A stretch of DNA of 32,000 nt. Source: Candidatus Saccharimonadota bacterium. Its GTDB lineage: Bacteria; Patescibacteriota; Patescibacteriia; 2-12-FULL-60-25. Shown here one piece after another: positions 5,484 through 26,948 of the stretch (its first letter is position 1; every line of letters starts with the position of its first letter). The notes under the pieces were generated by a model. The model had not been told where the DNA came from. It did not search any database and worked only from the letters and a program-made list of their open reading frames with translations. The stretch spans positions 690,001 through 722,000 of the forward strand of contig OY970357.1 in the NCBI GenBank assembly GCA_963718585.1, read 5' to 3'. The position numbers and the translations under genes were made by a program.

Positions 5484-5520
5484 CCCCGTCCACCAAGTGG
5501 CGGACGGGGCGAAGGGGCAA
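5484..5520 (-). terminator. Rho-independent terminator after lipoprotein gene 1
   Basis: The minus strand has GCCCCGTCC...GGACGGGGC (9-bp stem) followed by TTTTTCTTTAT, 18 nt after the stop at 5538. Confidence 0.7.
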
Positions 5521-5537
5521 GTGCGAGGCGTGGTCCC

Positions 5538-7247
5538 TTACGGAACCGGCTGGATCTCCATGTTGTAGAAGACCTCGTTGGGCGGTGCGGGTCCGGTGTT
5601 GTTCCACACCATGCTCCCGCTCACCGGCGCGCCGTTTTCTGTCACGACGACGGATCCGATGAACGAACCGCTCCCTCCGCAGGGCACGTTCGTGCTCTTG
5701 TCGAAGGTCCAACAGAAGCCACCCTGGACCGCGTTGTTCACGTACCTCATGTTGAACGCGAGGTAGGAACCCGACGGGATCACTGTTGAACAGGTGTACA
5801 CGCCGTCGACGGACGACGCCGTGCACAACGTTCCCCAATTATGGGCGATGCCGCCCGGTTCGAGGTACCAGCCCTCGACCGTCACGGGACCGTCCACCGT
5901 CGCGGTGTCCGGAGACCAGGTGAAGACCAGCGTCTTGACGCCGCCGTCGGACGAGCTCCCGCTCGAGCCTCCGGTCGCGGACCCGGCGCTGCCGCCGGAA
6001 CCCGAGGCATCGACGCCCGCATCTGCCGATCCAGCGCTGCCGCCGGAACCGGCCATGCCGGCCGTACCACCCGTGCCTGCACCGGCTGCACCTGCGGTGC
6101 CGCCCGTGCCAGCTGCACCGGCCATGCCGGCCGACCCCGAGCTTCCGCCCGTGGACGTGCCAGCCGTACCGCCCGTCGCGGACCCGGCGCTGCCGCCGGA
6201 ACCGGACGTGCCAGCCGTACCGCCGGTACTCCCTGCGTCGCCACTCCAACACAGGTTGGCGCTGCCACACTGGGTCCCGGAGAGAAGCCAGGTACCGTAG
6301 CCATTAGCGTCTGGACACAGACACTGCAGGATCAACGGCACAGCGGGATTCTCGTTGTTGACGCAGAACGAGACGTTCGAGGGGAGACACCCATAAGCGT
6401 CGACCACACACGGCACATCCGGCTTCGGCGTACAGGCGTTGTTGCCGGACCCGGCCGCACCCGCACTCCCAGAGGAGCCCGCTGCGCCCGAAGTCCCACC
6501 CGTGCCTGCGCCGGCCGTACCGCCGGAGCCGGAAGCTCCTGCCGTACCGCCCGTGCCTGCGCCAGCTGCGCCAGCGCTCCCAGAGGAGCCCGCCGCACCG
6601 CTTGCACCGGCCTGGCCGCCTTGGCCAGCCGTACCGCCGGTACCTGCACCAGCTGCACCTGCGGTGCCGCCCGTGCCTGCGCCAGCTGCGCCGGCCGTAC
6701 CACCGGAGCCGGAAGCTCCTGCCGTACCGCCCGTGCCTGCAGCACCCGCGCTCCCGGAGGAGCCCGCCGCACCGCTTGCACCAGCCTGACCGCCTTGGCC
6801 TGCGGTGCCGGACGAACCAGCTGCGCCAGCCGTACCGCCGGAGCCTGCACCCGCGGCGCCAGCGGCGCCATCGGGACCTGCATCCGCGGCCGGAGCCGGG
6901 ACGAGCATGTTGTTCGAGCAGACGAGCGCTACGGCCCTCTGGTCGGTACACCCCGGCCACAGGCCAGGAGTGTCCGTCTGAGAGCAGTAGTTGCCCGCCT
7001 GGCAGAAGCTGGTGAGCTTGTGCGTCGCAGTGTCGCACCAGAGCTTCCCGCTTGTCCCCGGGTTGTTCGGGTCGTTGAAGCAGAATTGCTGCGGCGTGGT
7101 GCACGTCGCGCCGAAGTCACAGCCCAAAAGCGGACTCGTGTTCGACTTTGACGTCGGGCTCTTGTCGCCCGACGAACACCCCGCCGCGAGACCGAACATG
7201 CCAATGAGCATGCCCGCCACGACGATCAGCCGGATCTCTCTCTTCAT
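5538..7247 (-). CDS. Secreted lipoprotein with Cys-rich modules, two long G/A/S/T low-complexity linkers and a beta-rich C-terminal domain (569 aa)
   Basis: Signal peptide plus lipobox MKREIRLIVVAGMLIGMFGLAAGC. There are Cys-rich segments and linkers such as GQGGQAGASGAAGSSGSAGAAGTGGTAGASGSGGTAG repeated. Its own promoter and terminator are present. Confidence 0.8.
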   Translation of the reverse strand: MKREIRLIVVAGMLIGMFGLAAGCSSGDKSPTSKSNTSPLLGCDFGATCTTPQQFCFNDPNNPGTSGKLWCDTATHKLTSFCQAGNYCSQTDTPGLWPGCTDQRAVALVCSNNMLVPAPAADAGPDGAAGAAGAGSGGTAGAAGSSGTAGQGGQAGASGAAGSSGSAGAAGTGGTAGASGSGGTAGAAGAGTGGTAGAAGAGTGGTAGQGGQAGASGAAGSSGSAGAAGAGTGGTAGASGSGGTAGAGTGGTSGAAGSSGSAGAAGSGNNACTPKPDVPCVVDAYGCLPSNVSFCVNNENPAVPLILQCLCPDANGYGTWLLSGTQCGSANLCWSGDAGSTGGTAGTSGSGGSAGSATGGTAGTSTGGSSGSAGMAGAAGTGGTAGAAGAGTGGTAGMAGSGGSAGSADAGVDASGSGGSAGSATGGSSGSSSDGGVKTLVFTWSPDTATVDGPVTVEGWYLEPGGIAHNWGTLCTASSVDGVYTCSTVIPSGSYLAFNMRYVNNAVQGGFCWTFDKSTNVPCGGSGSFIGSVVVTENGAPVSGSMVWNNTGPAPPNEVFYNMEIQPVP

Positions 7248-7344
7248 TTGGTCCTCCTTGATTGCCTCTAGCTTGCCAAAAGATCGGTCTTTACGACGGA
7301 ATGCCGCACTTCCCGCTTAGAAAAACCTATTTCGGGAATGTCTG

Positions 7345-7374
7345 ACCCTAGCAAAATACGGTTTACCTGTCAAG
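7345..7374 (-). promoter_or_regulatory. Sigma70-like promoter of lipoprotein gene 1
   Basis: The minus strand reads TTGACA (7374-7369), spacer GGTAAACCGTATTTTGC (17 nt), TAGGGT (7350-7345). The CCGTATTTT spacer core is shared with the promoter at 9194-9222. Confidence 0.45.
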
Positions 7375-7442
7375 GAATTACAGGAAAATAGGCTCAACTA
7401 TGCATTTTTCGCTAAACGAACGTAAATTTCGATGATCTGCGA

Positions 7443-7476
7443 ATAAAAAACGCCCCCGGGTGAGTACCCGGGGGCG
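7443..7476 (-). terminator. Rho-independent terminator after lipoprotein gene 2
   Basis: The minus strand has CGCCCCCGGGT-ACTC-ACCCGGGGGCG (11-bp stem) followed by TTTTTTATT. Confidence 0.8.
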
Positions 7477-7501
7477 AAGGTTTCGTGATCGGTTCAGCAG
7501 A

Positions 7502-9095
7502 TCACAGGGAGGCAACGCGTCGGCAGGTATACGCGGGACTCCCTTCGGGCTGGAGGTTGAGGGGAACGAGCGTTCCGCTATTCACGTCGACCACCTGCAC
7601 GGTGACCGAATCGCCATGGCAGATCCCGTTATAGAACGAGCTGTCGTAGCAGGTGCCCTGCCACGCATAGCTGCAATTCGTCGAGTTCTGCGGCCAAGAC
7701 AGATAGAACTTCGTCGGAGCGCTGGACCTCGGAATGAGACCCGTCTCGTAGAAGCCGTTACTGTTCCAGCTCATTGCGTAGGATCCGGCGCCATCGTTCA
7801 CGACGGGAGACACACCCTGACCCACGTTCGACAAGCGGACGCGGACCGTAGCCGGATCGACGTTTCCGTCGCAATCCAGATCGAGCTGATCGTTCCAGCT
7901 TTCGACCTGACCCGGATACTTGGCGTTGTCGTGGTCGTCGCAGTCCTTGAGCAACGGATTCGTTGCCGTCGGACTGAAGCCATCCCCGTCCGCATCATCC
8001 GATGCGACGAGCGACGAGACGTCGGCCGTGACCCAGAGGTCACACCCGTCGTCACTGTCGTGCTTCTTCGCGATGACGCGCGCAGCCGGCTGCCCGTCGA
8101 CCATGGCCCACATCGGCGCGACCTTGGAGGCCTGCGTCGTGGACAGCGAATCGAGCTTGCAGAGGCCGTGCGCCCACGGACTCGAAGCAGACGGATCCCA
8201 CTCGCCGTTGAACTTGAGCTGACTCCCACGCTGGATCGCGACCGAGAAGGTCACGCCCGGCGCATCCGTCGCACTCATGTCCGCCTGCGGATAGGACCAG
8301 TTGGCCCCGCCGATGCGGAACGGAACTTCCTGCGCGTAGAGCTGGAAGGCGTGGTTGCCAGACATGGGCGACAACACGTGGACCGTCAGCGTCACGAGGT
8401 CATTGACCACGCCGCCGTCCGTTCCGTCGTTGCTGCCCGCACCTGCCGCGCCGCCGGCGTTCGTGGAACCTGCTGCCCCGGCGTTTCCGCCGGAACCGGA
8501 CGTTCCGCTCGCACCTGACGACCCACCCGTTCCGGCCGTTCCGGCCGTTCCGCCCGTGCCGGATGAACCCGAGGATCCGCCCGAGCCAGACGTTCCGCCT
8601 GTTCCCGACGATCCCGCACCGCCGCTCGAACCACCCATGCCGGAAGTACCGCCGGTCCCGTTCCCGGTCCCGGACGCTCCTGCCTGGTTGTTCTGCTGGC
8701 CTGCGGATCCGCCCGTGGAGGGCGTTCCCGCCTGACCGCCGGTGTTCGTGGAACCTGCTGCCCCGGCGTTTCCGCCGGAACCGGACGTTCCGCCTGTTCC
8801 CGACGCGCCTGCCGCACCACCCGATGCCGACCCGTCCTTGCAGACGATGTTCGACGCCGTGTCGCTTGGCATGTTGACGCCGCAGTGACACACGTTGTGT
8901 GCCGCACGTCTGCCCCTCGATGGAACAGCTCGTGCCCGTGGCGCACGGATCGGACCCGTTTTTCGGATGCGACCCCGTACCACCCTGGCCAGCGGCACCT
9001 GCCGCATTCGCGTTCCAGTTGATGTCGTCCGCGGCGTTCCCGCAGGCGACGCTCAACAGGGCGATCAAACCGATCAAGATGTGAATGTGCTTCAC
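7502..9095 (-). CDS. Secreted lipoprotein paralogue with a G/S/T/A linker and a MopE-like DCDD..DCDG metal-binding-type motif; frame change near 8895-8903
   Basis: ORF 8400..9095 supplies MKHIHILIGLIALLSVACGNAADD.. (lipobox) ..SCSIEGQTCG. ORF 7502..9007 continues HNVCHCGVNMPSDTASNIVCKDGSASGG.., the linker, then ..DADGDGFSPTATNPLLKDCDDHDNAKYPGQVESWNDQLDLDCDGNVD... Confidence 0.7.
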
Positions 9096-9193
9096 TTGGA
9101 TACCCTTTTGTTGATGGCGCCGCGATGACGCCGGAGTTGACGCCCCCCAAGGAGTACACGGACTATCCGCGCACTCGTCTCAGAGAACAAAGA

Positions 9194-9222
9194 AAGATAC
9201 CAAAAAATACGGATTTTGTCAA
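9194..9222 (-). promoter_or_regulatory. Sigma70-like promoter of lipoprotein gene 2
   Basis: The minus strand reads TTGACA (9222-9217), spacer AAATCCGTATTTTTTGG (17 nt), TATCTT (9199-9194). Confidence 0.45.
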
Positions 9223-9386
9223 GAGTATGACTTACAGAATAGAGCCCTATTTATGCGCTATAAAATGGCCTATTTAGGCCATTTAATTGAACTCACCTCA
9301 TTATTCCTCAAGACTTTTTTACAAAATGTCTGATCTAAGCCATTTTTCCACATCGAACTCCCGCCGTCCGATGCTACACTGGATAT

Positions 9387-13179: not shown

Positions 13180-13207
13180 GGCCCGCCTTCTCGGCGGGTC
13201 GTTTTTT
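13180..13207. terminator. Bidirectional terminator between convergent genes
   Basis: A CCCGCC-TTCTC-GGCGGG stem is flanked by AAAAG on one side and TTTTTT on the other. Confidence 0.6.
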
Positions 13208-14904
13208 ATCCCTGCGCCCGTCGCGCCGCGAGATGCGCGATGTGCCGTTTGCGCTCGGCCGCGTACTTCGACAAGCTTGGTCCCAATTTTTCCATCATGA
13301 GTGCGGCCGCATTGCCGCCGAGGAAGTGCGGCAGGATCACATAGCTCGCTCCGGACCGATACAACACCTCAGCCTCGTCCACGGACTGTGCCATCAACAC
13401 GACGATCGCGCGCTTGTTCGCTTTGCGGACCTTGGAGAGGAGGAAGGCATTGGATTCGAAATCCGGGATCGTGGAGACGACGACGCGCACGCGTCCCAAC
13501 CCGAGATCGTCGAGGAACTCGTTATCATCCGCGTCGCCATATCGGCATGGCACGCCCTTGGCCTCGAGCCCCGCGATCACCGCCGGATCAAAGTCCACGA
13601 CCAGCGTCTTCAGTTTGAGATGTTCCAACGACGGGAGGAAGTCCGATCCTACGCGATGACAGCCAAAGAGGATGGCGCCGAACCGTTCACGCCGCCCTCG
13701 TTCCGATATCGGACGCGCACGTTCGAAGATCCCGAGGAGCGGCGCCAATCCGCGATAGATCGGATCCGCATATAAGATGAGGATCGACGATCCGGCGATC
13801 GTGATAAGTGCGACAAGCGTGGCAAGCGCGACATCACTCTGCGTGAGGTAGCCGTCGCGCGCGGCCGTGAACAAGAACAACAGCGAGAACTCGGAGATCT
13901 GCGCGACCGTGAGCCCGGCCATGAAGGACGTCTTCTTCGCGTACCCGAGCAGACCAAGGATCACTATGACCACGATCGGATTACCGATGAGGATGAAGAC
14001 CGAATACCAGATCGCCGGACGCAACAACGGCGCCAAGTCCCGTGATCGGCAACTGCGCGCCGAGCGAGACGAAGAACAGGATGATGAAGAAGTCGCGCAA
14101 GAGTTTCATCTTCGCGCTGATCTCGTAATGATACGGCGACGCCGCGAGCGTGATGCCGGCAAGGAGCGCACCGACCTCGGCAGACAATCCCATCACGCTG
14201 AAGAGCGCAGAAAGCCCCACGCCCCATCCGACCGAGAACAGGAGAAGGAATTCCTGCGACGCCGCGAATACGCGTGTGATGAACGGCAGGATGAATCGCG
14301 CGATGATATACAACAGGACGCCGAGTCCGAGGATCTTGCCGAGCAGGGCGAACCCGGCCGTCGTCACGTCCCCGCCCGCCGCGACCGAGGTCATCACGAT
14401 GATCGCGAGCGTGGCCGCGAGATCCTGCACGATAAGGAATCCGATCGCGATCTTGCCGTACAGCTTCCCGAGGTCGTTCTTATCCGCCAGGAGCTTGGTG
14501 ACGATGATCGTCGAGGAGAATGTGAATGCGAGCGCCATGAGGAGCGCCGGCGCCTGCGCGATCCCGAGCACCCGTCCCAGCGCATATCCAAGGAATGTCG
14601 TGAAGAGGATCTGCCCGAATCCCGTCAGGATCGACGCGCGTCCCACGTCGCGGAACACCTGCGGCGAAAGCGACAACCCGACGATGAAGAGGAGCGCCGT
14701 GATCCCGAGTTTGGAAAAGATGTCGATCGTGCTCTGCGAATGGATGAGGTTCAGCACCGCCGGACCCGCGAGGATCCCCGTGAGCAGATGGCCGAGCACG
14801 AGCGGCAGGCGCAGGGTCTGCATCACGAACGCCACGCCCGTGGCGAGTGCGAGGATGAGGCTGATCTCGACGAACGTGTTCATGCGCGTCATATATCTTA
14901 CCAT
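13206..14904 (-). CDS. CPA2-type cation/proton antiporter with a C-terminal RCK/TrkA-N domain; frame change near 14030-14040
   Basis: ORF 13981..14973 holds the Na_H_exchanger-type TM core (..LPLVLGHLLTGILAGPAVLNLI..GLSLSPQVF..FLIVQDLAATLAIIVM..). ORF 13206..14036 holds the remaining TMs plus ..AILFGCHRVGSDFLPSLEHLKLKTLVVDFDPAVIAGLEAKGVPCRYGDADD... The likely start is an ATG at 14904, 14892 or 14883. Confidence 0.75.
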
Positions 14905-14908
14905 GCGA

Positions 14909-15889
14909 TCACGGCGCGATCCGGTTCCCGCATCGCGCGTGCAGCTCCACAAGGTCCGCACTCGTGAGCACATCCGTGTTCCCCTCGTTCATCGCATACA
15001 TCACGGCATGCGTATCCGAGACATGTTCAAGTCCGAGCGCATGTCCGAATTCATGCGTGAGCACGCGCACGAGTTTATCACGGTCTGCTCGAATTGATAG
15101 ATATTGATCCGCGTCCCCTGCCCATCCGACACATACTCCCCTTCCTGGAACGACTCCCCCTGCGACGTCGCCGACCGTATTATACGTCGCGACATTCAGA
15201 TTCAACGTATGCGCGAGTCGGTTGAGCTCCGACGCCATGAGCATTGACGTCGTCCACCGTCTTATTGAGCTGATCCTGCGCCGCATTCACCGCATCCACT
15301 TCTGCATTGATCACGCTCTGCTCGTTTTGAAGCCGCGATATTCCTTCGCCGAGACGCCACCGCGCTGCGCCGCCTTCACTTCTGACGCGAAGGATGCCTT
15401 TTCCGTATCCAATGCCGCGATCCGCGCATCCAGCCCCTTCTTCGCCGTCTGATACTGCGCATCCAACGCATCGTACTTCGCCTTCAACGCATCATACGAC
15501 GCCCTGTCGTCATGCAGGACGATCCCAAGACTCTGCAATTTCTGCGTTGCCTGCTGACGCGTATCATAGACAAGGTTCACCGCCAGCTCCCCACCCGTCG
15601 CATCCGCGACCAAGAGATCCTTTCCCGCCGCATCGTTCCAGACCTTTGCCGCCGTATCGATCGCATCGGAAAAATCCTGCCGCGAGATGTTGAACCGCGG
15701 ATCAAAGGAACCGATCGAATACGGGATCGGCTGAGCGCACGGCACCGGCGGAAACAGCGTCCGCTGGATATCCTTCCATGTGAGGTGATTCAAGACGAAC
15801 GCGTTGTACGCCGTGGCCGCGAGGATACCAAAAGAGACGAACGTCACCAGGACGGCGAAGAACGGCGTGCCCTCATCCCGCTTTGGCAT
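14909..15889 (-). pseudogene. Matrixin-like (M10) Zn metalloprotease with N-terminal TM and coiled coil; about 4 frame changes between 15075 and 15325
   Basis: Four pieces in three frames join into one protein. ORF 15311..15889 gives the TM and ..YDALKAKYDALDAQYQTAKKGLDARIAALD... An unlisted frame gives QNEQSVINAEVDAVNAAQDQLNKTVDDVNA. ORF 14909..15286 gives ..ASELNRLAHTLNLNVATYNTVGDVAGG and ..DKLVRVLTHEFGHALGLEH... ORF 15001..15195 gives ESFQEGEYVSDGQGTRINIYQF. The HEXXHXXGXXH motif is present. Confidence 0.65.
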
Positions 15890-16227
15890 GCCTCCAGTTT
15901 ACCATTCTCATGTACCCATTCGCACGAATGGTCCAGAACGCATGCAAGGATCGGATGGATCGGATACGCGATCCGATACACGACGAATTCCCGCTCCTGA
16001 CGATATGCAAGGAGCTCGGCGCGAGAAAGCGTGATCAAATGTTTCGATGTTGAACGAAGAGAGAGTCTCAACGCGCCAGCGATCTCCCCGACGCTCATGT
16101 CCCGTCGACGCAAGAGGTGGATGATGGTCAGCCGGCGCGCGTTCGCCAGCGCTTTGAGGATGCGGACGGGCTCCATATCTCTTTCCACCGCTGCCACGAG
16201 ACCCACACCGTTGTCAACCCACTCCAT
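15844..16227 (-). CDS. ArsR/SmtB-family HTH regulator (copy 1)
   Basis: ..MEPVRILKALANARRLTIIHLLRRRDMSVGEIAGALRLSLRSTSKHLITLSRAELLAYRQEREFVVYRI... The 3-prime tail reads through palindrome P1 and overlaps the protease start, so the real end may be earlier. An alternative start is the ATG at 16176. Confidence 0.7.
   Translation of the reverse strand: MEWVDNGVGLVAAVERDMEPVRILKALANARRLTIIHLLRRRDMSVGEIAGALRLSLRSTSKHLITLSRAELLAYRQEREFVVYRIAYPIHPILACVLDHSCEWVHENGKLEACQSGMRARRSSPSW
15916..15931. repeat. Palindrome P1 (ATTCG-NN-CGAAT family)
   Basis: CCATTCG-CA-CGAATGG, with 7-bp arms. Confidence 0.9.
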
Positions 16228-16230
16228 GCA

Positions 16231-16248
16231 CCCATTCGCACGAATGGG
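16231..16248. repeat. Palindrome P2
   Basis: CCCATTCG-CA-CGAATGGG, 4 nt upstream of the ArsR-1 ORF start. A half-site CGAATGGGG lies at 16266-16274. Confidence 0.9.
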
Positions 16249-16358
16249 CGTATAAAGCGCGGGGACGAATGGGGCTGGCGGTCAGAAGCGCTTGATGATC
16301 GTCATACGCTCGTTGCTCCTCACATACCATCCGCACATGGAGGAAGGATAGCACGAGG

Positions 16359-16865
16359 TCACATCCCCTTCAGATACGCTTCCGTCAGTTCAGGCGTCTG
16401 GCAAGCCGTTTGCGCGATCTCTTGCGATCGAGTGATGCATTCATCCAGCAACGAATGCAGCTCTTCCGGGATCTCATCCCTCTGCAGACTCCCCATGTTG
16501 TGCGGCCATGTACTCTTTTCTATGGCATAGATCTTCTCCCACCGCTTGGTGCGTAGGACGCTTTTCTTTACGCCCTTATTCAAGCCATCGAGAAACGCTC
16601 GTCCGAGCCGATCCGCCTTCTCCAGCTGAGCAGGTGTTGGCATCTTTTTCCGTGCAAGCTCTGACGATCTCAATCCTTTCTTTGCGTGTTCTGTCATGTG
16701 AGCTGTATCCGGTGTCTGGTTTCTTGCAGCTTTTAAGGCTCTGATCGTGGAATGGATCGTGACTTCATCATAGTCATAATTCGGCTGACTTTCATCGTCT
16801 GACTGCATCTTCATTAGAGATCCTGCGTCATGGCGAGGATCCGTTATTTGTGTATTGTCTGTCAT
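16359..16865 (-). CDS. Hypothetical protein (168 aa)
   Basis: Track ORF MTDNTQITDPRHDAGSLMKMQSDDESQPNYDYDEV... It is preceded by the conserved leader module and palindrome P3. No motif recognised. Confidence 0.5.
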   Translation of the reverse strand: MTDNTQITDPRHDAGSLMKMQSDDESQPNYDYDEVTIHSTIRALKAARNQTPDTAHMTEHAKKGLRSSELARKKMPTPAQLEKADRLGRAFLDGLNKGVKKSVLRTKRWEKIYAIEKSTWPHNMGSLQRDEIPEELHSLLDECITRSQEIAQTACQTPELTEAYLKGM

Positions 16866-16950
16866 ATATTTCTTTCGTTAGATGAATTAAGTGTCGCGAT
16901 CGCTCTTCCCATCCTTATTCTCTCATTCGCGCGAATGAGAGAATGGAGAT
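16845..16950 (-). repeat. Conserved ~100-bp leader module, copy A (includes P3 and the first codons of the 168-aa ORF)
   Basis: It aligns with 17298-17410 through the shared blocks GTCTGTCATAT, GTTAGATGAAT, GTGTCGCGATCG, TTCCC and CTCATTCG.GCGAATGAG. Both ORFs begin ATGACAGAC. Confidence 0.8.
16917..16944. repeat. Palindrome P3
   Basis: ATTCTCTCATTCG-CG-CGAATGAGAGAAT, with perfect 13-bp arms. Confidence 0.9.
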
Positions 16951-17318
16951 CACGGTTCGAGCTGCTTCTCCGGAAGATCCGGGTGGCCGACCCAATATGC
17001 CTTCTTTTCTCCGTCACTCGGCCAGTCGAAAACGATATGCGCATGCGGGCATTCAGGCCAGGGCCGTTTTGGCGTCTCTTCCCACCATGTCTCATCCGGG
17101 ACCGGGAATATGATGGCGTGCTGCGGGTCTTCCCCGTTGATCCAATCGATCTCCTCCGTGAAGATCCGGATGTACAGCTGGCCGCACTCCTCGCACCGCA
17201 CGAGCCGCGTGCTGTTGTGGGAATCTTCTACATAGGATTTGACGATGGTGAACCCGGCAAGATCTGAAGGTTCAAGAACCGGTTTGGTCCAAAGGTAGCA
17301 TTGTTTGTAGTCTGTCAT
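16950..17318 (-). CDS. Hypothetical Cys/Trp-rich protein (122 aa)
   Basis: Track ORF MTDYKQCYLWTKPVLEPSDLAGFTIVKSYVEDSHNSTRLVRCEECGQLYIRIF... It is preceded by the conserved leader module and palindrome P4. Confidence 0.5.
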   Translation of the reverse strand: MTDYKQCYLWTKPVLEPSDLAGFTIVKSYVEDSHNSTRLVRCEECGQLYIRIFTEEIDWINGEDPQHAIIFPVPDETWWEETPKRPWPECPHAHIVFDWPSDGEKKAYWVGHPDLPEKQLEP

Positions 17319-17410
17319 ATGTGTTTTTTGTTAGATGAATAAGGTGTCGCGATCGGTATTCCCGCCCCCATAGGCTCATTCGTGCGAATGAGCCTATGGG
17401 AGACGATCGA
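17298..17410 (-). repeat. Conserved ~100-bp leader module, copy B (includes P4 and the first codons of the 122-aa ORF)
   Basis: See copy A. Confidence 0.8.
17367..17400. repeat. Palindrome P4
   Basis: CCCATAGGCTCATTCG-TG-CGAATGAGCCTATGGG, with perfect 16-bp arms. Confidence 0.9.
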
Positions 17411-17413
17411 CCG

Positions 17414-17450
17414 GAAAAACAAAAAGCGGCTGAGAGATGTTATTCAGCCG
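17414..17450 (-). terminator. Rho-independent terminator downstream of hicBA
   Basis: The minus strand has CGGCTGA-loop-TCAGCCG followed by CTTTTTGTTTTTC. Confidence 0.55.
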
Positions 17451-17677
17451 TAGCTGAATGAAATCTCCCAACCGTCTTCACGATCAGTCGCACAGCGCCT
17501 TCCGGGCCCCAGCAGATTTCCCTGGTCCCCTTCTCCATTTGCGGAGAGACACTGTCGGCCCGTTTCTGCGGGCTTCAGTCTGCACTCAAAAGAACTTCTT
17601 ACATACTTACTTTACCCCATTTTCCCGATTCCGTCAACTCTCTCATCGCGTCATGGATGCCCATGAGATCGGTATGA

Positions 17678-17902
17678 TCAGCTTTTCTTTGTGAATGATC
17701 CGAATTCGACATTCGCCAATGACAGGATGCCGCGGAGCGTCCCACTTGCGAGCTCGCGATGGAGTGGCACGATCGTGACGATCGTCTTGCCGGCGATCGT
17801 CTTCTTCAATTTCACATGGCTGCCTTTCTGGCTCGCCTGATGGAATCCGAAATCCCGGATCAAGACGGCAATGACGTATGCACCCGAATACGTCTTCGCC
17901 AT
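17678..17902 (-). CDS. hicA: HicA-family mRNA interferase toxin
   Basis: ..VIAVLIRDFGFHQASQKGSHVKLKKTIAGKTIVTIVPLHRELASGTLRGILSLANV.. shows the GSH..P.H..L..GTL..I pattern. It lies 10 nt downstream of hicB. Confidence 0.85.
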   Translation of the reverse strand: MAKTYSGAYVIAVLIRDFGFHQASQKGSHVKLKKTIAGKTIVTIVPLHRELASGTLRGILSLANVEFGSFTKKS

Positions 17903-17912
17903 ATGGACGGGA

Positions 17913-18128
17913 TCAGACCTGGGCCTCCAGCGTCGTCAGTAACGGAGCTTCGCGCGAGATCTGCTTTTTCATCCGCGGCTCGTCTTCCAAAAACAGCTCA
18001 ACGGCCTCTTCGAGATTCTTTCGCGCGTCATCGATCGTCTTGCCCTGGCTCACCACGCCCAACTCGACGGCCCGCGCCACGTACCATTTACCCTCTTTGA
18101 CGATACTGGCCGTGAATTTGTAGGTCAT
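17913..18128 (-). CDS. hicB: HicB-family antitoxin (UPF0150-type N-terminal domain)
   Basis: MTYKFTASIVKEGKWYVARAVELGVVSQGKTIDDARKNLEEAVELFLEDE... Confidence 0.8.
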   Translation of the reverse strand: MTYKFTASIVKEGKWYVARAVELGVVSQGKTIDDARKNLEEAVELFLEDEPRMKKQISREAPLLTTLEAQV

Positions 18129-18218
18129 AGCATTGAGAAAAGCGTACCCTGACTCGACGGAAAAATCAACGGAACCGCTTAAATTTCCTATCTACACGAA
18201 TGAGCCCGTGGTCATACC

Positions 18219-18242
18219 GGTCTTATTCGCGCGAATAAGACC
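18219..18242. repeat. Palindrome P6 (half-site P5 CGAATGAGCC at 18197-18206)
   Basis: GGTCTTATTCG-CG-CGAATAAGACC, with perfect 11-bp arms and a left flank of CATACC. Confidence 0.9.
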
Positions 18243-18492
18243 TGGATCCCAGGACGGCATCGGTCACGATGTGGCGGGGTTCGGCGAGACGGTACTGACG
18301 GACGGTCCCGGTCTGCAGGTGGTCGATAACGTCTGCCTTGGAGAGGATCTGCAGGTGTTTGGATGTTGCGCGAATGGACAGCTTGATCGCGGCCGCGATC
18401 TCGGACACGGAGCGGCTCCCCGGCCGCAGGAGGTCCACGATCGCCAGCCGGCGCCGATTCGCAAGGGCTTTGAGCAGCTTCTCGATCTGCAT
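18223..18492 (-). CDS. ArsR/SmtB-family HTH regulator (copy 2)
   Basis: MQIEKLLKALANRRRLAIVDLLRPGSRSVSEIAAAIKLSIRATSKHLQILSKADVIDHLQTGTVRQYRL... The stop codon lies inside palindrome P6, and palindrome P7 sits 9 nt upstream of the ATG. Confidence 0.8.
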   Translation of the reverse strand: MQIEKLLKALANRRRLAIVDLLRPGSRSVSEIAAAIKLSIRATSKHLQILSKADVIDHLQTGTVRQYRLAEPRHIVTDAVLGSRSYSRE

Positions 18493-18500
18493 ACAGGTCG

Positions 18501-18514
18501 TATTCGCGCGAATA
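18501..18514. repeat. Palindrome P7
   Basis: TATTCG-CG-CGAATA. Confidence 0.85.
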
Positions 18515-18570
18515 AAATTCGCGTCTCTATATACCGCTGCCCTATCCTAACCAGCGTGTCAATCCCCCAT

Positions 18571-18600
18571 ACCGGCCCCATTCGCGCGAATAGGGCCGGT
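18571..18600. repeat. Palindrome P8
   Basis: ACCGGCCCCATTCG-CG-CGAATAGGGCCGGT, with 14-bp arms and 1 mismatch; left flank CAT. Confidence 0.9.
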
Positions 18601-18634
18601 AAGGCGGGGAGGAACGGGAGGATCTCCAATACAA

Positions 18635-18656
18635 GTCCTATTCGCGCGAATACGAC
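18635..18656. repeat. Palindrome P9
   Basis: GTCCTATTCG-CG-CGAATACGAC, with 1 mismatch. Confidence 0.85.
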
Positions 18657-18793
18657 CGGTAGCTGCAAGCCGTCCCACGATGCCCCACCCCCGCCCTCAA
18701 CCCAACCTCTCCCCTCCCGATTTTTTCCCTCATTTTCCCCGTTCGTTGCTCCTTTCTCGCTCATTCGTCCGATTGAACCCGCGGATCATACCA

Positions 18794-18815
18794 GTCCTAT
18801 TCGCGCGAATAAGAC
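18794..18815. repeat. Palindrome P10
   Basis: GTCCTATTCG-CG-CGAATAAGAC, with 1 mismatch and a left flank of CATACCA. A degenerate copy CTCATTCGTCCGATTGAA lies at 18760-18777. Confidence 0.85.
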
Positions 18816-18977
18816 CAATAACGGAGAACACCGGATGGTTCCGGTGAAGCTCTCGGGTGACTATTCGCCAAGGCGGAAGTGATGCGAGGCCCAAGAAGAA
18901 GATGTCGGAAGTCGTTCTCTTCACTTGTGAACACTTCTACTATACGGGAAATCGGGGGAAATGTCAGAGAATCGAGC

Positions 18978-19930
18978 TTAGGCCCTGGACTCACGTGTCT
19001 TCACCTGAAAATAACATTTTTCACAATATCCCTTTGCATAGTGTCGGATTGTGCTTAATTTGCATTTCTTGCAGGATGCATGATCTCGACTCCATTGATT
19101 TGGACGAAGTTTGTTTGATTCATAGATCTTTGTCATCTCTAACATACAGCTATGCATCCTAGCACTTTTGAAATTTTCTAAAGCATGATTTTTCTTGTCT
19201 CCAATATGTAGCATCGTAGCAAATCGTGGTGCTTATTTTTTCTGTATTCGTCCCTGCCAATTCCACACGATTCACACTTCTGACCAGCACGATCCATAGC
19301 CAGCTCACGGTTTCCACCGAGATTCTTTAACATCTCTATAACAATTTTTACAGAAACCTTCTTTAAAATGTTTTAAATCGATTTGTTCCGCAGTTTCTGC
19401 ATGTTGTATGAATTTTTATTCCATCTTTTTTTTTCTTCTCGTTCCAAAATCAACAATTTCCTGTGTATGCCTCCGGGTACATTTCTGAAAGCACTGCCAA
19501 GAGCGTCAGCACCATAATCTCGATAAAAAAGCACGAGCGCTTGTATATTTGTTGATTATTTCTAGCAGCTCATCTTTCTTCGCATGCCGAGCTTCTGCAT
19601 ACATTCGCCGCTTTCTCTATTTCGGTATGAATTTTCTTTTGCGCACCTAAAAAAACATCTAAATCCACGGTATAGCCTTGCGATGCGTGCGCCTCAATTT
19701 CTTTCATCCACGAAGATTGGATCAGCTGGCGGAGTCTGTTCGCGGGTGAGTGAATATTTGTTTCCGATTTCAGCCAAACTAAAACCTTGACGAATAATTA
19801 GATCGATCATCTCGTGTCTTCGTTCATCAACTGCGGGCGTTGAATTCGTGCGTGTCACTTCTTTCATCAGCTGGGTTTCCGGGTCCAGGATGATACGCCT
19901 ACCATCTGTTAGAAACGCTCGCAAGTTCAT
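18978..19930 (-). pseudogene. Degraded sigma-r4-like HTH / double Zn-ribbon / HNH endonuclease gene (at least 4 frame changes)
   Basis: The fragments sit in three frames. They are ..MIDLIIRQGFSLAEIGNKYSLTRE then RVRQLIQSSW.. (HTH); ..TCRNCGTN.. and ..HFKEGFCKNCYRDV; ..GQKCESCGIGRDEYRKNKHHDL..; and LHIGDKKNHALENFK.. plus ..CKKCKLSTIRHYAKGYCEKCY (track ORF 18978..19214). Confidence 0.5.
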
Positions 19931-20628: not shown

Positions 20629-22032
20629 TCAACTGGCGATGCAGGCAGGCGCAGTCAGATGTCTGCCTGAATGACCCCCTCCACTGCCACCGCCTCCGGC
20701 TCCACCCTGAACCCCGCCCAGAACCTCACCGATGATTTTTTTCATCAATTTATCTTTCCAGGCGTTCAATAATTCATTGTATTTAGTAGAAATATTTTTT
20801 TGAACCTCTTCGGTTTCTTTTCTCTCCTTATCCGCAATCTTAAGCGCCAAAGACTCTACTTGATCCGCAATCCATTTCAACAAGGCCCTCGTAAGCTCAT
20901 TGTCTGCTAACTTTATACGGTCATTCTTTACACAGTCATGTTCCTTGCTCTCAAGAATTTCACAGCCCGAAAGTTCACCCCAAATATGTGAAGCCTGAGG
21001 AAAATTCTTTACTCCGAGCTCTTGCAATGCATAACTTGCAATAACAGCCTCTTCACCCTGAATATCAATTCTGTTCAGTTCACTGAACTTCGAATTTTCC
21101 AAGGCCTGATCGGATACATGCAGTAAGAGCCTCCCAGGTGCATATTTTTTAGTACCGACTTCCACCGCACCTTCACCGTCCTTGCTCGCATAGGGTAGCT
21201 CGTAAGGTACTTCGATCGGAGATGGCTGTTCAAAATCTTCATATGGCTCCAACTCATCCGGAAGCAGTCTTGCGAATAAAGATTCATTATTTTGAAATAC
21301 GGAAAAATTTATCCGAGGCAACACTCTCATCAGCTGAGGATGATTACGGAGTCGCTCACAATACTTAACACCAGGCAATGGAACCCCACGCTTGCCAGCA
21401 GTTGGCACTGGATCATAACCTCTCACAACGGTAAATCCCGCAAGCCCTTTTTCTAATTTTTTTATGATATTTTTTGAGATAACACGCTCATCAATACGCG
21501 CTATGTGCAGCGCTTTCTGAAAATCAATTTTTTCATCTTGGTGTCCTTCGGCAAATCCGTAACGCTTATGTTTATTAAATCCGAAGATGTTTAGACGACC
21601 GTCTTTATAGGTAATAAAGTCGGAATGCCGAAACATTTGACGCATATAGAATTTTCCACCATTACCATGTCCACCGAGGGTTTTCTTGTTGGTTCCACGA
21701 CCTGCGGCGACCGCACTTCCCCATTTTTTAAAATCAGCCTCTATCCTCGCTTTTGTCGTTCCGACAAAATCAACGCGAGTAATCGCTTGCTCACCGTCGA
21801 GATTATCATCAAAACTTAAAATAATATGCCTTTCAGCATCGGGTACATCGGAAATCGTGTATGCATCCATCGAGTTCTTGATCCACTCGGCGATACCTTT
21901 CGGATGGTCAAATCTAAAATCCTGACCCCATAAATCCAAAACACGCTCAGCGTCCATTTCCGTGGCCACTTCCTTGATCGTAAATCCAGTTTTTTTAGGC
22001 ATATATTCGTAAATAAGATCAGTTGAAGCCAC
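20629..22032 (-). CDS. GHKL-superfamily (HATPase_c_3 / MORC-paraMORC-like) ATP-binding protein, 467 aa
   Basis: N-box-like GIAEWIKNSMDAY, G1-like RVDFVGTT and G2-like LGGHGNGGKFYMRQMF are followed by a long middle region, a KERKETEEVQKNISTKYNELLNAWKDKL helix and a GGVQGGAGGGGSGGG tail. The start is the GTG at 22032 or the ATG at 22002. Confidence 0.7.
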   Translation of the reverse strand: MASTDLIYEYMPKKTGFTIKEVATEMDAERVLDLWGQDFRFDHPKGIAEWIKNSMDAYTISDVPDAERHIILSFDDNLDGEQAITRVDFVGTTKARIEADFKKWGSAVAAGRGTNKKTLGGHGNGGKFYMRQMFRHSDFITYKDGRLNIFGFNKHKRYGFAEGHQDEKIDFQKALHIARIDERVISKNIIKKLEKGLAGFTVVRGYDPVPTAGKRGVPLPGVKYCERLRNHPQLMRVLPRINFSVFQNNESLFARLLPDELEPYEDFEQPSPIEVPYELPYASKDGEGAVEVGTKKYAPGRLLLHVSDQALENSKFSELNRIDIQGEEAVIASYALQELGVKNFPQASHIWGELSGCEILESKEHDCVKNDRIKLADNELTRALLKWIADQVESLALKIADKERKETEEVQKNISTKYNELLNAWKDKLMKKIIGEVLGGVQGGAGGGGSGGGHSGRHLTAPACIAS

Positions 22033-23111: not shown

Positions 23112-23495
23112 CTAGAATGGGATCGAGCCAAAATACTTTTTCTTTTTCAAACGATGATCCCATACTCTCATCGTTTTCCAATCCATCTTATTTAGAGCCC
23201 TTAAATTCCTTCTATCTCGTCGAATATTGGCTTCAATTTTCTTTCTCCAAAATGGAGAGAGTTTTCTTTTGGTTTTCTGGTACCCCCAGCCATGCCAAAA
23301 ACCTCCCTCAATAAATACCGCTTTCTTTGTAGCGGGTATCGCAACATCGGGTGACCCAGGCACAAATTTATAATGCCTTCTAAATCGAATGCCCCGTTTT
23401 ACGAGGTCGGTATATACCAAAAGCTCCAATGAGGTATTTTTGCCTTTAATGTTTGACATTATCTCACTGCGTTTCTTTTTGCTGAAAACGTCCAT
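23112..23495 (-). CDS. vsr: Very-short-patch repair endonuclease (Vsr) homologue
   Basis: ..KKKRSEIMSNIKGKNTSLELLVYTDLVKRGIRFRRHYKFVPGSPDVAIPATKKAVFIEGGFWHGWGY..FWRKKIEANIRRDRRNLRALNKMDWKTMRVWDH.. follows the Vsr pattern RS..MS.I....T..E......G.R.R.......G.PD......A.F..G.FWH. Confidence 0.85.
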   Translation of the reverse strand: MDVFSKKKRSEIMSNIKGKNTSLELLVYTDLVKRGIRFRRHYKFVPGSPDVAIPATKKAVFIEGGFWHGWGYQKTKRKLSPFWRKKIEANIRRDRRNLRALNKMDWKTMRVWDHRLKKKKYFGSIPF

Positions 23496-23612
23496 ATCGT
23501 GATAGGCTTAGTCGAATCATCAAGCCCATGCCGAATCTGCAAACCATTGAAATTGACGGGAAGGGAAAATCAGAAAATTAAACAGGTAAAGTCTATTGCC
23601 GCCGTTTTTCCG

Positions 23613-24388
23613 ATGATACCCGACGAAGTTGAGATAAAACCAGCGCTAAGCCTTATCGAGGCACGCGTCCAAAAAGAAGCGGATTCAGCGGGTTGCACGA
23701 TTCATCAGGGTGCGTTCAATAATGTACGGGGTGAATGGTTCGAATTGTTTCTGAATTCTAGATTTTACAATCTTTCGAAGAAAAACGGCCGGTACTGTAT
23801 TTTCAGCATCCCCAACGTGAATTCAACCCCATTCGTCGAATTCTTCAACACGGAAGTCGTAGAGCGATTGAAGGAGCTTGAAACCAATCTCCGCAAACAA
23901 GATATCGAGCTTCAAATGTCGAATCCGGATTTTCTTTGCGTCGATTTATCCAAAGTGGAACCTGATGTCTCCAAAGAGGCACTGAGTCACGAACGTTTGA
24001 AATTGTTTGATGAAGATAGCGCACAATTTTTAAATGACCTTCATAAAATTTTTATAGGAAATGTTCGTTCGATGCGATCAAGTTCGCAATTTCCGCAAAA
24101 ACATCAGTCCGACCCGATCGCCGGTATCAATTCGTTCATGAAGGAAACATCATTAAGGCATTCACCGCACATTTGCAAACGAGATTCTGGAGAAACGATT
24201 TCGAAATAAAATATTTCGCTATCATGAATGAAGAACCGACCGATGCCGACCGAGAAGTATTGAAAACAGCCGCACTTTCTTCAATCACGAACGTTTTTTC
24301 AAGCTCGGTCCGCGCCGTTGACGGTATCTTTTGGATACAAAAACTCAGCGATATAGACGCCTTCATTAAAAAGGCCCTCGTCTCATAG
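23613..24388 (+). CDS. Type II restriction endonuclease of the Cfr10I/NgoMIV (CCGG-core) family; frame change at the A-run 24059-24061
   Basis: Frame 1 (track ORF 23499..24209; the likely start is the ATG at 23613) reads ..RGEWFELFL..LQMSNPDFLCVDL..FLNDLHKIFIG. The +2 frame reads KCSFDAIKFAISAKTSVRPDRRYQFVHEGNIIKAF.. and runs to the TAG at 24388 (track ORF 24173..24388). Together they give PD ... S-x-K with Glu 14 residues after the Lys, and K-x3-R-x-D-R. Confidence 0.7.
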
Positions 24389-25761
24389 CTTTTCAACCCG
24401 ATCGAGTTGTTTGATTGCTTTTTTCATTTGTAACCCCACTACTCTTGCCAATACGGGCGGTACTGCATTTCCAATTTGTTCACCGATCGTCTTAAGACCG
24501 CCTACATATTGATAATCCAGCGGAAACGTCTAGAGTACCGCCATTTCTATCGTATTCAAGCCTCGATTTTCGGAAGGATGGATATATCTGCCCTTTGTCG
24601 GATTGTAACCGCACGTCCGAATCGTAACCGACGGTTCATTCCACCTCAAACGACCGAACGTGTCTTGACCTTGATATTTTCCACTCTTCCAGCAATCGGG
24701 CAGCATGCGAGCGGGTAAATTTTTGAAGTTACCACCTTCCGGAATCATGGAGATACGTTTCACCATCTCGTCCGAATGGTTCATGGAGCAACAATCTTTT
24801 TTCTTATCCGATCTTTCGGAATGGTTTTAAAAGCTTCTCGCACAGTAACCCACTTCGATATTCCTACATCCGAATTTCTCGAATGTGTGGGTTCCGGAAA
24901 CTCCGGGACAACACCGATCGGCAACCGATCACGAATAATCGTTTACGCTTCTGCGGAGCGCCATAATCCGCGGCAAGTAAAAGCTTGGAGTTAACCGCAT
25001 ATCCGATGCGTGAATGCCTTCTCAAGCGTTTCAATGACGGTTTTATGCTTACTTTGCGTCAAACCTTCCACGTTTTCAAAAATAAATCCCTTCGGTTTGA
25101 TTTCCCTGACGAGTCTGATAAAATCCTGAAAAAGAGTTCCGCGTGAGTCTTTAACGCCTTTTTTCATTCCCATGTTACTGAAAGGTTGACAGGGAGCGCC
25201 TCCGACTACCAACGCGGTTTCTCCGACCCGTAACCCGGCTCTTTTTAAAATGAAGTCCGAAGTAATCTTCGTGACATCACCGTTGAAATCATCAATAGGA
25301 TCCCAATTAGGACGATTTAATCGTATTGTTTCTCGAAAAACGGGATTGAACTCAACTGAAACAACCGTTTCAAACCCTGCCTGTTCGAGACCTATGTCCA
25401 TCCCGCCGGCACCGGTAAAAAGACTCACAACCGGCAAATTCGGTAGTTTTTTTACCTTACGAATTTTTTTATCATGCTCAAAAAAATTCGATCGACGAAG
25501 GAATCTTACGAACGCCGTCGGATCAGATGATGCGGCTCTAACGATATCCGAAGGCAGGTAACCGGCAAGCACCGACCATTCGTCGGCATCTGCCTGTAGC
25601 GCTCCGGCGAGACGGAGTATCAGATCTTTTGAAGGCTTGATGTGTTCGTTCTCGATCTTACTTAAATACGAGTAATCTATCTCGAGTTCGGCTGCAAGTG
25701 TTTTGATGCCGACCTCGAGTTCCGCTCGTCTTGTTCTGATCGCTCCTCCTAAAGTGCTCAT
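24383..25761 (-). pseudogene. XRE-HTH-fused C5 DNA cytosine methyltransferase, disrupted by 3 frame changes and one in-frame TAG
   Basis: The HTH is LGGAIRTRRAELEVGIKTLAAELEIDYSYLSKIENEHIKPS. The MTase motifs are SLFTGAGGMDIGL (I), GGAPCQPFS (IV) and FENV (VI). IGYAVNSKLLLAADYGAPQKRKRLFVIG (VIII) follows after a shift near 25005. Further shifts lie near 24925 and 24795. The 3-prime part reads ..RLRWNEPSVTIRT..IHPSENRGLNTIEMAVL-TAG-TFPLDYQYVGGLKTIGEQIGNAVPPVLA.., with the TAG at 24530-24532. Confidence 0.8.
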
Positions 25762-25763
25762 AT

Positions 25764-25785
25764 GGGTTGATATAATTATCAACCC
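25764..25785. promoter_or_regulatory. Palindromic candidate operator directly upstream of the methyltransferase start
   Basis: GGGTTGATA-TAAT-TATCAACCC, with 9-bp arms, sits 3 nt from the ATG at 25761 and contains TATAAT-like hexamers on both strands. Confidence 0.45.
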
Positions 25786-25828
25786 TGGGTTGGAACAAAT
25801 CAAGAACACTTATCCACAACTAAAAAAT

Positions 25829-26888: not shown

Positions 26889-26948
26889 ACGTGCCTGCCT
26901 TCGGCTTATGTGTTAGCCGAATAGGGCTGACGCCCCACAAGCACGCTC

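Follow-up and report, generated by a model that had tools for sequence, protein, structure and literature searches.

Within a 32,000-nucleotide stretch of the genome of a Candidatus Saccharimonadota bacterium (contig OY970357.1, positions 690,001 to 722,000; hereafter the window, numbered from its first letter), an array of small accessory genes is punctuated by a family of palindromes built on ATTCG-NN-CGAAT. We conclude that these palindromes are probably the operators of a minimal, sensor-less, HlyU-like autoregulator of the ArsR/SmtB family that occurs across the candidate phyla radiation (CPR, or Patescibacteria), and that the system has here probably expanded into a local regulon of accessory genes with two regulator paralogues, ArsR-1 and ArsR-2. 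An initial annotation of the window had offered ArsR operators and a small regulon as one of its two readings, and this is the reading our results favor: the palindrome brackets the regulator gene in most of 80 CPR loci, its core covaries with the recognition helix of the protein, a contig from another CPR genome holds two paralogues with different operators, and promoter boxes adjoin the sites. An imperfect inverted repeat at the regulator's own promoter, as autoregulation would require, was found both in the sequence and by comparative genomics. We found no description of the motif, of the bracketing layout or of a CPR ArsR regulon in the searchable literature. The kind of system is known; this one differs in that its regulator gene is bracketed by operators, that this layout is conserved across CPR, and that operators punctuate arrays of accessory genes.

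The exact core, ATTCGNNCGAAT, occurs nine times in the window, with starts at 15918, 16234, 16925, 17378, 18225, 18502, 18580, 18640 and 18799 (core-to-core spacings of 316, 691, 453, 847, 277, 78, 60 and 159 nt). All nine copies are confined to 15918-18810, a span of 2.9 kb, and the other 29 kb of the window contain none; dinucleotide-preserving shuffles of the window gave a mean of 0.14 copies and a maximum of 2. With two mismatches allowed, the count was at background (29 found, 31.6 expected), and a copy with one mismatch lies within the array at 18763-18774. Ten full copies had initially been reported, under a list of names (P1-P4 and P6-P10, which we keep) that itself comes to nine, and the figure of "at least 10" is reached only by counting the copy with one mismatch. 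The half or degenerate copies reported at 16266-16274, 16323-16340, 18197-18206 and 18760-18777 are visible in the sequence, and the palindromes do extend beyond the core, as the same annotation had said: the arms are self-complementary and different from copy to copy, with a maximum of 16-2-16 at 17367-17400, where 16 of 16 positions are complementary. The arms of the pair at ArsR-1 (P1 and P2) are unlike those of the set at ArsR-2 (P6-P10), a difference that would be compatible with co-diverged operators.

The first contigs retrieved through homologues of ArsR-2 (49-65% identical) came from unrelated groundwater CPR with wholly different neighboring genes, and yet the same core flanked the regulator gene. 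A scan of one genome per species returned 126 relatives, from which we kept 80 loci, each from a different CPR species; the loci belong overwhelmingly to CPR lineages, and a few have been labeled automatically as "uncultured Gammaproteobacteria" or simply as "bacterium". We called a gene bracketed when the exact core lay at most 200 nt upstream of it and again at -20 to +120 relative to its stop codon. By this definition the core stood on both sides of the ArsR homologue in 57 of the 80 loci, upstream only in 7, downstream only in 4 and on neither side in 12. It was thus upstream of the gene in 64 loci, where it sits beside -10 or -35 boxes. The downstream core starts at the last base of a TAA stop codon in 21 loci and lies within the last codons in 5 more, as it does in ArsR-2. 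The metagenomic contigs L002, L006, L008, L099 and L100 also have the core on both sides of an ArsR homologue.

Across these genomes the site has the consensus T(C/G)TCT(A/T)-ATTCG-CG-CGAAT-(A/G)(A/G)G-n-GAATA(G), an imperfect palindrome of about 30 bp with inner and outer ATTC/GAAT half-sites, in which the arms are more complementary than base composition predicts as far as about 12 positions from the core. We built a weight matrix from 169 sites of other genomes only, with the window sites excluded, and this matrix recovered eight of the nine window sites at 11-42 bits, P3 being the best, and nothing else in the 32 kb (0.04 hits in shuffled sequence). In the other genomes, sites were densest around the regulator module, by which we mean the gene and the two sites that flank it: 0.109 per kb at distances up to 1.5 kb, compared with 0.026 per kb farther off and 0.00095 per kb by chance. 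The flanks of the upstream and downstream sites were more alike within a locus than between loci (identity 0.665 versus 0.466), a difference that none of 2000 permutations reached. The next gene downstream was co-directional in 34 and convergent in 14 of the 48 loci that could be classified. Because the neighbor is convergent in those 14 loci, the downstream site cannot be the neighbor's promoter there, and since the site is kept despite this orientation, it appears to belong to the regulator module itself.

The core also changes with the part of the protein predicted to read it. We found the canonical core in 71 of 77 loci whose regulator has the canonical recognition helix or a T or Q at its R/K position, while all seven loci with an altered helix were without it and had a variant palindrome flanking the gene at either end (Fisher p = 4e-7; p = 1e-4 if the changes are taken as four independent events). 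In most of the loci without the canonical core, another palindrome stands on each side of the gene. The helices LSFAATSRH and LSMAATSRH pair with ATTCAATTGAAT (three Kaiserbacteria-type loci), LSLMATSKH pairs with ATTTGCGCAAAT, VTLPTTSKH with A(C/T)TTGCCTAA(G/A)T, and ISFKAVSNH with ATTCTATAGAAT. Moreover, the groundwater CPR contig L002 encodes two ArsR paralogues 3.3 kb apart (5619-6012 and 9008-9360), one bracketed by ATTCGCTCGAAT and the other by CATTTGCGCAAATG, and judged from its sequence it is a natural example of paralogues with diverged operators. Taken together, the pairing of helix and core, the L002 paralogues and the locus-specific flanks form the pattern that would be expected for operators co-evolving with a dimeric DNA-binding protein.

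The protein itself was modeled by AlphaFold2 with a predicted local distance difference test score of 89 as a winged-helix fold (a1-a2-a3-aR-b1-b2-a5), for which Foldseek returned Mb0332, SmtB, HlyU, CzrA and NolR at template modeling scores of 0.75-0.85; HlyU was also the best match of the family profile among solved structures (E = 2e-15). None of the inducer-sensing sites we looked for (alpha3N cysteines, alpha5 His/Asp/Glu, redox cysteines) was found. The invariant positions of the family alignment (A9, A11, N12, R14, R15, V29, S39, T43, S44, H46, L50 and Q60) do not form a known ligand set, and such a sensing site defines only the sensing subfamilies, not the ArsR/SmtB family overall. Given that ArsR-2 contains no cysteine and that the family alignment has no conserved metal ligands, the protein is most simply taken as a sensor-less, HlyU/SdpR-like member of ArsR/SmtB.

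This assignment places the CPR regulator near two known groups. With HlyU, a non-metal-sensing ArsR/SmtB protein of Vibrio, and with autorepressors of the SdpR type, it shares a minimal winged-helix fold of about 90-100 aa, the lack of a metal site and, by prediction here, palindromic DNA near promoters as its binding target; the NCBIfam SdpR model matches the protein, yet under its cut-off. Identity to HlyU is only about 30%, however, ArsR-2 lacks HlyU's redox cysteines and the operator sequence differs. The CPR gene is bracketed by two operators, one of them over the stop codon, and its family was restricted to CPR in our scan. With the metalloregulators SmtB, CzrA and CadC the likeness extends to protein family and fold and to an imperfect inverted repeat with a 2-bp center at or near the regulator's own promoter, and two dimers per extended site are plausible in both. 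Unlike these metalloregulators, the CPR protein has no alpha3N or alpha5 metal ligands and no metal-efflux or metallothionein gene adjoining it, and its sites also occur downstream of the gene and in arrays. The 12-2-12 boxes of SmtB, CzrA and CadC are of the TGAA/TTCA type, from which the ATTCG-NN-CGAAT core differs.

The sequence around the sites suggests how such a regulator would act. In low-GC CPR the core is directly followed by extended -10 boxes resembling TGGTAGAAT. Nine loci have their ATG 26 nt downstream of the core start and TAGAAT-like boxes 6-7 nt ahead of that ATG, and this short distance implies a leaderless mRNA; in further loci a separate TATAAT box precedes the ATG by 6-8 nt. 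A high-GC clade, represented by an alignment of four sequences (ArsR-1, ArsR-2 and their nearest relatives, L099 and L100), has a different layout, in which the operator is followed after about 13 nt by GGGG(A/T)TTGACA, N17-18, GCAGCGGT, an optional second operator and GTATG. In the window, the conserved promoter block of ArsR-2 occupies 18516-18569 on the minus strand and reads GGGGGATTGACA (TTGACA at 18557-18562), N17, GCAGCGGT. This alignment identifies P8 and P7 as the putative distal and proximal operators of ArsR-2, and it also places the homologous start of ArsR-1 at the ATG at 16176. The GGTATG that follows P6, P8 and P10 was considered as a remnant of an ArsR start codon and rejected, as the alignment shows it to be arm and spacer before the TTGACA box.

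From these observations we propose that a winged-helix ArsR/SmtB protein of about 85-91 aa, conserved across Patescibacteria, would bind as a dimer and read the two ATTCG half-sites with the N-terminal part of the helix LS-x-[R/K]-[A/S]-T-S-[K/R]-H. Flanking arms, mostly with outer ATTC/GAAT half-sites, would widen the site to about 26-32 bp and would differ by genome and by paralogue. The core abuts or overlaps the extended -10 box of a leaderless mRNA in most CPR, and in the high-GC clade it stands about 13 nt 5' of a TTGACA box, in some cases accompanied by another operator immediately ahead of the ATG. Since the core sits at promoter boxes, the bound protein most likely represses its own gene and its neighbors, a sign suggested by position. 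The ancestral unit consists of an operator, the regulator gene and a second operator over its stop codon. In the window there are two diverged paralogues, ArsR-1 with P2 and P1 and ArsR-2 with P8, P7 and P6; the operator-promoter module appears to have been copied before hicBA, two ORFans, a small RNA (sRNA)-like gene and a membrane-protein gene, which may thereby have come under the same control, and P9, P10 and the copy at 18760-18777 would be leftover orphan or decayed copies.

Could the motif instead be a promoter or UP-like element to which RNA polymerase, an alternative sigma factor or another factor binds, with the ArsR gene merely its commonest neighbor? The motif always stands in the orientation of the gene, is then followed by the conserved G-n-GAATA(G) or a -10-like box, and precedes very diverse genes, as such an element might; still, it stands at no fixed place with respect to the -10 and -35 boxes, ranging from an overlap with the -10 box to about -55, and its absence from the rest of the window, together with its low density away from ArsR genes in other genomes, does not suit a general promoter element. 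That the core changes alongside the ArsR recognition helix also speaks against this explanation, which we consider highly improbable.

A second alternative, raised in the initial annotation, is that the palindromes are hairpins in RNA or single-stranded DNA, similar to repetitive extragenic palindromic (REP) sequences, and that they act by structure as transcript-end, processing, stabilizer or terminator elements. The arms do vary between copies and yet stay self-complementary, and some hairpins would be very stable (P4, -34 kcal/mol, z = -8.3; P8, -36 kcal/mol, z = -5.1), but this stability is not shared, with energies ranging from -8 to -36 kcal/mol and P1 and P7 behaving like shuffled sequence (z about -1). 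What stays constant is the center, where the loop and the pairs that close it would form, which is the opposite of what a purely structural element would show, and the sites are tied to one protein family with whose recognition helix they covary. Although the downstream copy does lie in the 3' end of the ArsR transcript, the upstream copies stand upstream of a -10 or -35 box and are therefore outside the transcript of the gene they precede. No palindrome scores as a hairpin followed by a U-run, the sole regional hit being a separate 5-bp stem at 18241-18253 whose T-rich tail runs into P6. The resemblance to REPtrons, in which a small gene is likewise bracketed by short palindromes with further intergenic copies, is limited: the bracketed gene here encodes an 89-aa winged-helix DNA binder instead of a Y1 transposase, and in the 32-kb window the copies are few and clustered near the gene, not dispersed in hundreds. 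The palindromes lack a GTAG head, and no gene for a REP-associated tyrosine transposase (RAYT) was found among the open reading frames (ORFs) scanned. With hairpin stability uneven and copies clustered locally instead of dispersed, we set the REP-like reading aside as very improbable. We also rejected intrinsic terminators, for want of a GC-rich hairpin with a U-run at any palindrome and of stable hairpins at P1 and P7, and a CRISPR array, for which the spacing is too irregular and the arms are not the same from repeat to repeat. A search of the whole window against Rfam found no match at the gathering threshold, the region 15800-19000 had none at E <= 1, and no tRNA or tmRNA was found.

Several observations weigh against our interpretation of the palindromes as operators of an autoregulator. 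The covariation of helix and core comes from about four independent lineages, and loci with a T or Q at the R/K position of the helix retain the canonical core. The protein offers no recognizable ligand or metal site through which it might receive a signal. The genes behind the sites share no common function (6 small clusters and dozens of unrelated Pfam families); they include genes for MazE, DUF2196, NUDIX, GIY-YIG, PD-(D/E)XK, UvrD, a Y-family polymerase, Ham1, RNase H, HAD, NifU and aminoacyl-tRNA synthetases. A promoter role does not account for the downstream site where it faces a convergent gene, and the spacing between upstream and downstream sites shows no 10.5-bp helical phasing, so that DNA looping gets no support. 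In the window, the pairing of paralogues with operators covers P1/P2 and P6-P8 and leaves P3 and P4 outside it. Finally, some perfect arms (P4, P8, L023 and L077) extend 14-18 bp per side, beyond the reach of a single ArsR dimer, which would mean either that two dimers bind or that an additional, structure-based constraint applies.

The remaining alternative takes the arrangement of the genes as its starting point and holds that the palindromes are primarily junctions of mobile cassettes, units of gene plus site being gained, lost or shuffled by recombination at the roughly 30-bp sites through an unidentified site-specific recombinase or through homologous recombination after DNA uptake, with ArsR binding secondary or incidental. 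Contig L001, from another sample, is 100% identical to 16324-18602 of the window and parts from it precisely at P8's outer edge; past this point L001 carries another palindrome and a second, 92%-identical copy of the sRNA-like gene. L001 is a short-read contig from Logan, whose assemblies use a k-mer size of about 31, and a junction at a 32-bp repeat could be chimeric. Other signs of modularity are a 99-nt 5' module common to two unrelated ORFans, orphan or tandem sites without genes in the window (P9 and P10) and in other CPR genomes, and decayed copies in the array. The neighbors of the regulator module also differ widely between lineages, but its synteny is conserved within them (L036 with L087; L021 with L032 and L081). 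The ORFs scanned in about 13-28 kb included no integrase, transposase or RAYT, the 5-2-5 core repeat is unlike attC, dif or lox-type sites, the family has no relatives in 2.9 million viral contigs, and the covariation of helix and core indicates that protein recognition constrains the core. We therefore regard cassette junctions as a quite unlikely primary function. The second reading in the initial annotation had joined mobile cassettes to REP-like hairpins, and of its two parts the cassette-like modularity is real and survives as a secondary possibility; the hairpin part finds no support in the evidence given above.

Cassette arrays of integrons offer a comparison. They too consist of co-directional small genes, often ORFans or toxin-antitoxin genes, with imperfect palindromes between them, and we saw hints of strain-level cassette differences. 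In contrast to integrons, the array has no attI or Pc, the ORFs scanned include no integrase such as IntI, and each unit here has its own promoter. The sites also differ, being 12-32 bp long with a conserved center and variable arms, as opposed to attC sites of 57-141 bp with conserved ends (R''-L''...L'-R', GTTRRRY). It is conceivable, though in our judgment rather unlikely, that in CPR the operator also serves as a junction at which cassettes are exchanged in plug-and-play fashion, and that the array in the window, with its orphan sites, its decayed cassettes and the low-GC restriction-modification island that adjoins it, is a capture locus. If this were true, toxin-antitoxins, nucleases, ORFans and sRNAs would move together with a standard operator-promoter of about 30 bp or be caught behind one; an operator conserved almost universally across CPR would, after DNA uptake, offer transferable homology at which to recombine, much as if an integron did without its integrase; and a small ArsR-like protein would silence newly arrived cassettes, as a lineage-specific analogue of xenogeneic silencing.

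A low-GC island borders the array on one side. GC content in the window is about 0.58-0.60 and falls to about 0.42 at 18.8-26.9 kb, starting right after P10. The island carries restriction-modification genes, and at its far edge, beside the mreB stop codon, lies an isolated half-site, CGAATAGGGC (26918-26927), equal to the right half of P8; the window holds 2 copies of this half-site where 0.08 are expected, and we assign the one at the island's edge to the family tentatively. Bounding of the island by P10 and a P8-type half-site is a further point in favor of cassette junctions. The island encodes a Cfr10I/Bse634I-like endonuclease (23499-24209, plus strand), Vsr (23112-23495, minus strand), a C5 methyltransferase fused to a helix-turn-helix domain (24991-25809, minus strand), and a 467-aa protein with a GGHGNGGKF motif and no family hit (20629-22032, minus strand). 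The methyltransferase is probably truncated or frameshifted, since it covers only positions 3-129 of the 324 in the profile. A link between the Cfr10I-type system and the palindromes by way of RCCGGY in their arms was rejected, as RCCGGY is common throughout the window (71 sites). A phage origin was rejected for the lack of relatives in viral contigs, and a search for strain variants in metagenome contigs with the lineage-specific pattern TATTCGCGCGAATNNGNCNNGTAT gave 8 single hits that resemble chance matches.

If the palindromes are indeed operators of the ArsR-type protein, they would bear on gene regulation in the Patescibacteria, about which almost nothing is known and whose members are mostly uncultivated, with reduced genomes and few regulators. 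They would provide a testable regulator-operator pair, apparently conserved over many CPR classes, with predicted specificity residues (R/K for an ATTCG core and A for ATTCA) and with naturally occurring variant pairs that lend themselves to exchange by experiment. Regulons might then be predicted from sequence alone in thousands of metagenome-assembled genomes. The bracket arrangement and the operator-punctuated arrays are unusual for the ArsR family and may explain how newly acquired genes are wired into a control circuit.

The array itself lies entirely on the minus strand. In the order of transcription it runs from P10, a decayed remnant and P9, through P8, the promoter block, P7 and ArsR-2, to P6, a half-site, hicB and hicA; it continues with a degenerate site and the sRNA-like gene, P4 and a 122-aa ORF, P3 and a 168-aa ORF, degenerate copies, P2 and ArsR-1, and finally P1 and a 192-aa ORF. 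The initial description of palindromes in the gaps of a co-directional array of ArsR-2, hicB, hicA, the 122-aa ORF, the 168-aa ORF and ArsR-1 is thus accurate. The array looks like the product of repeated duplication of one operator-promoter module before differing genes, a view based on the context of P1, the 99-nt repeat that contains P3 and P4, and the promoter of the sRNA-like gene in L001.

At the upstream end of the array, P10 (18789-18816, core 18799-18810) is an orphan and the final element ahead of the low-GC island, and P9 (18630-18661, core 18640-18651) is likewise an orphan with no gene behind it. Between them, a degenerate copy with one mismatch, ATTCGTCCGATT (18760-18777), lies inside a decayed promoter or cassette remnant at 18662-18786. 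Tandem orphan operators in several CPR genomes resemble the P8-P9-P10 arrangement: same-orientation operators 46-109 bp apart with no ORF behind them were seen in L017 (9454-9592), L078 (5519-6070), L063 (4826-4913) and L026 (6840-6897).

P8 is a 32-bp palindrome (18570-18601, core 18580-18591), and P7 (18492-18515, core 18502-18513) leaves a gap of 9 nt between its core and the ATG of ArsR-2. ArsR-2 (18223-18492, minus strand), whose contig is 1,084,458 bp long, is an 89-aa ArsR/SmtB-family protein with the recognition helix LSIRATSKHL, and it matches Pfam HTH_5 at 34.3 bits (cut-off 22) and NCBIfam NF033788 at 61.8 bits (cut-off 55). Its stop codon falls inside P6 (GGTCTTATTCGCGCGAATAAGACC, 18214-18247, core 18225-18236), where the reading frame ends ...TAT TCG CGC GAA TAA (...SYSRE*). 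P6 stands 96 nt 5' of hicB and is followed by the half-site CGAATGAGCC at 18197-18206. The toxin-antitoxin pair downstream of it consists of hicB (17913-18128, minus strand) and hicA (17678-17902, minus strand). As HicB is only 71 aa long and without a DNA-binding domain, hicBA may rely on P6, a putative operator of ArsR-2, for its transcriptional control.

Between hicA and P4 lies the sRNA-like cassette (17405-17662, minus strand), which comprises a degenerate right half-operator at about 17640-17662, a promoter of the form TTGACG-N17-TAAAGT at 17609-17637, a structured transcript and a terminator of hairpin and U-run. The candidate sRNA (17405-17640, minus strand) has a minimum free energy of -79.9 kcal/mol (z = -3.6), and it showed no Rfam match, no conserved ORF and no copy in the other CPR loci examined. 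Its second copy in L001, at 67-197, stands behind a consensus-type palindrome that lies 13 nt 5' of the TTGACG box.

The two ORFans that follow each have a site 59 nt 5' of their start. P4 (17367-17400, core 17378-17389), a perfect 16-2-16 palindrome, precedes the 122-aa ORF (16950-17318, minus strand), for which a search of 5.8 billion proteins returned no homologue, the sole match being the protein itself. P3 (16917-16944, core 16925-16936), ATTCTCTC-ATTCG-CG-CGAAT-GAGAGAAT, scores highest in the window at 40-42 bits, fits the CPR-wide consensus almost perfectly with four half-sites, and precedes the 168-aa ORF (16359-16865, minus strand), which has no family match in Pfam or in the defense, phage and NCBI family libraries. 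The two genes are otherwise unrelated, and their 5' regions are copies of a 99-nt direct repeat (16848-16946 and 17301-17399, 78% identical) that takes in the palindrome, the leader and the first codons (MTD...).

At the downstream end, P2 (CCCATTCGCACGAATGGG, 16231-16248, core 16234-16245; 26-29 bits) is the putative upstream operator of ArsR-1 and is followed on the gene strand by GGGTTGACA (16212-16217) and then by the conserved GCAGCGGT block. It had been placed 6 nt before an ArsR-1 start at 16227; with the homologous ATG at 16176, P2 is instead about 57 nt upstream. ArsR-1 (15844-16176, minus strand, with an open frame up to 16227) is also a small ArsR/SmtB winged-helix protein (Pfam HTH_5, PF01022, 23.8 bits with a cut-off of 22; NCBIfam NF033788, 61.1 with a cut-off of 55). 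Homologues have a stop codon inside the downstream palindrome, and ArsR-1 does not (15844-15960, minus strand): the TAA is missing in P1, so that the gene reads through the palindrome in frame and gains a tail of about 40 residues, which overlaps the start of the 192-aa ORF at 15889. ArsR-1 may be a decaying paralogue or one with a new tail. P1 (CCCATTCGCACGAATGG, 15915-15931, core 15918-15929; 16-19 bits) lies at the downstream end of ArsR-1 and 28 nt 5' of the ATG of the 192-aa ORF (15311-15889, minus strand), a putative membrane protein and the last gene with a site in front; on the gene strand P1 is followed by TGAGAAT, then by a GGAGG ribosome-binding site and then by this ATG. For the window's unfamiliar ORFs, the defense, phage and NCBI family libraries gave nothing useful, and in exact-protein look-ups MreB, the 168-aa ORF and the 192-aa ORF had no record, while the 122-aa ORF and HicA matched L001 only.

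Elsewhere, the window carries mreB and a gene for a DUF4012 protein. At 5500-9000, GC content rises to 0.68-0.72 across two long ORFs on the minus strand (569 aa and 501 aa), for which Pfam yielded no family except one MopE-type metal-binding motif. A Kef-type cation/proton antiporter (13206-14973, minus strand) is split into two overlapping ORFs, one covering positions 4-280 of Na_H_Exchanger and the other positions 291-369 together with TrkA_N, which suggests a frameshift or a sequencing error.

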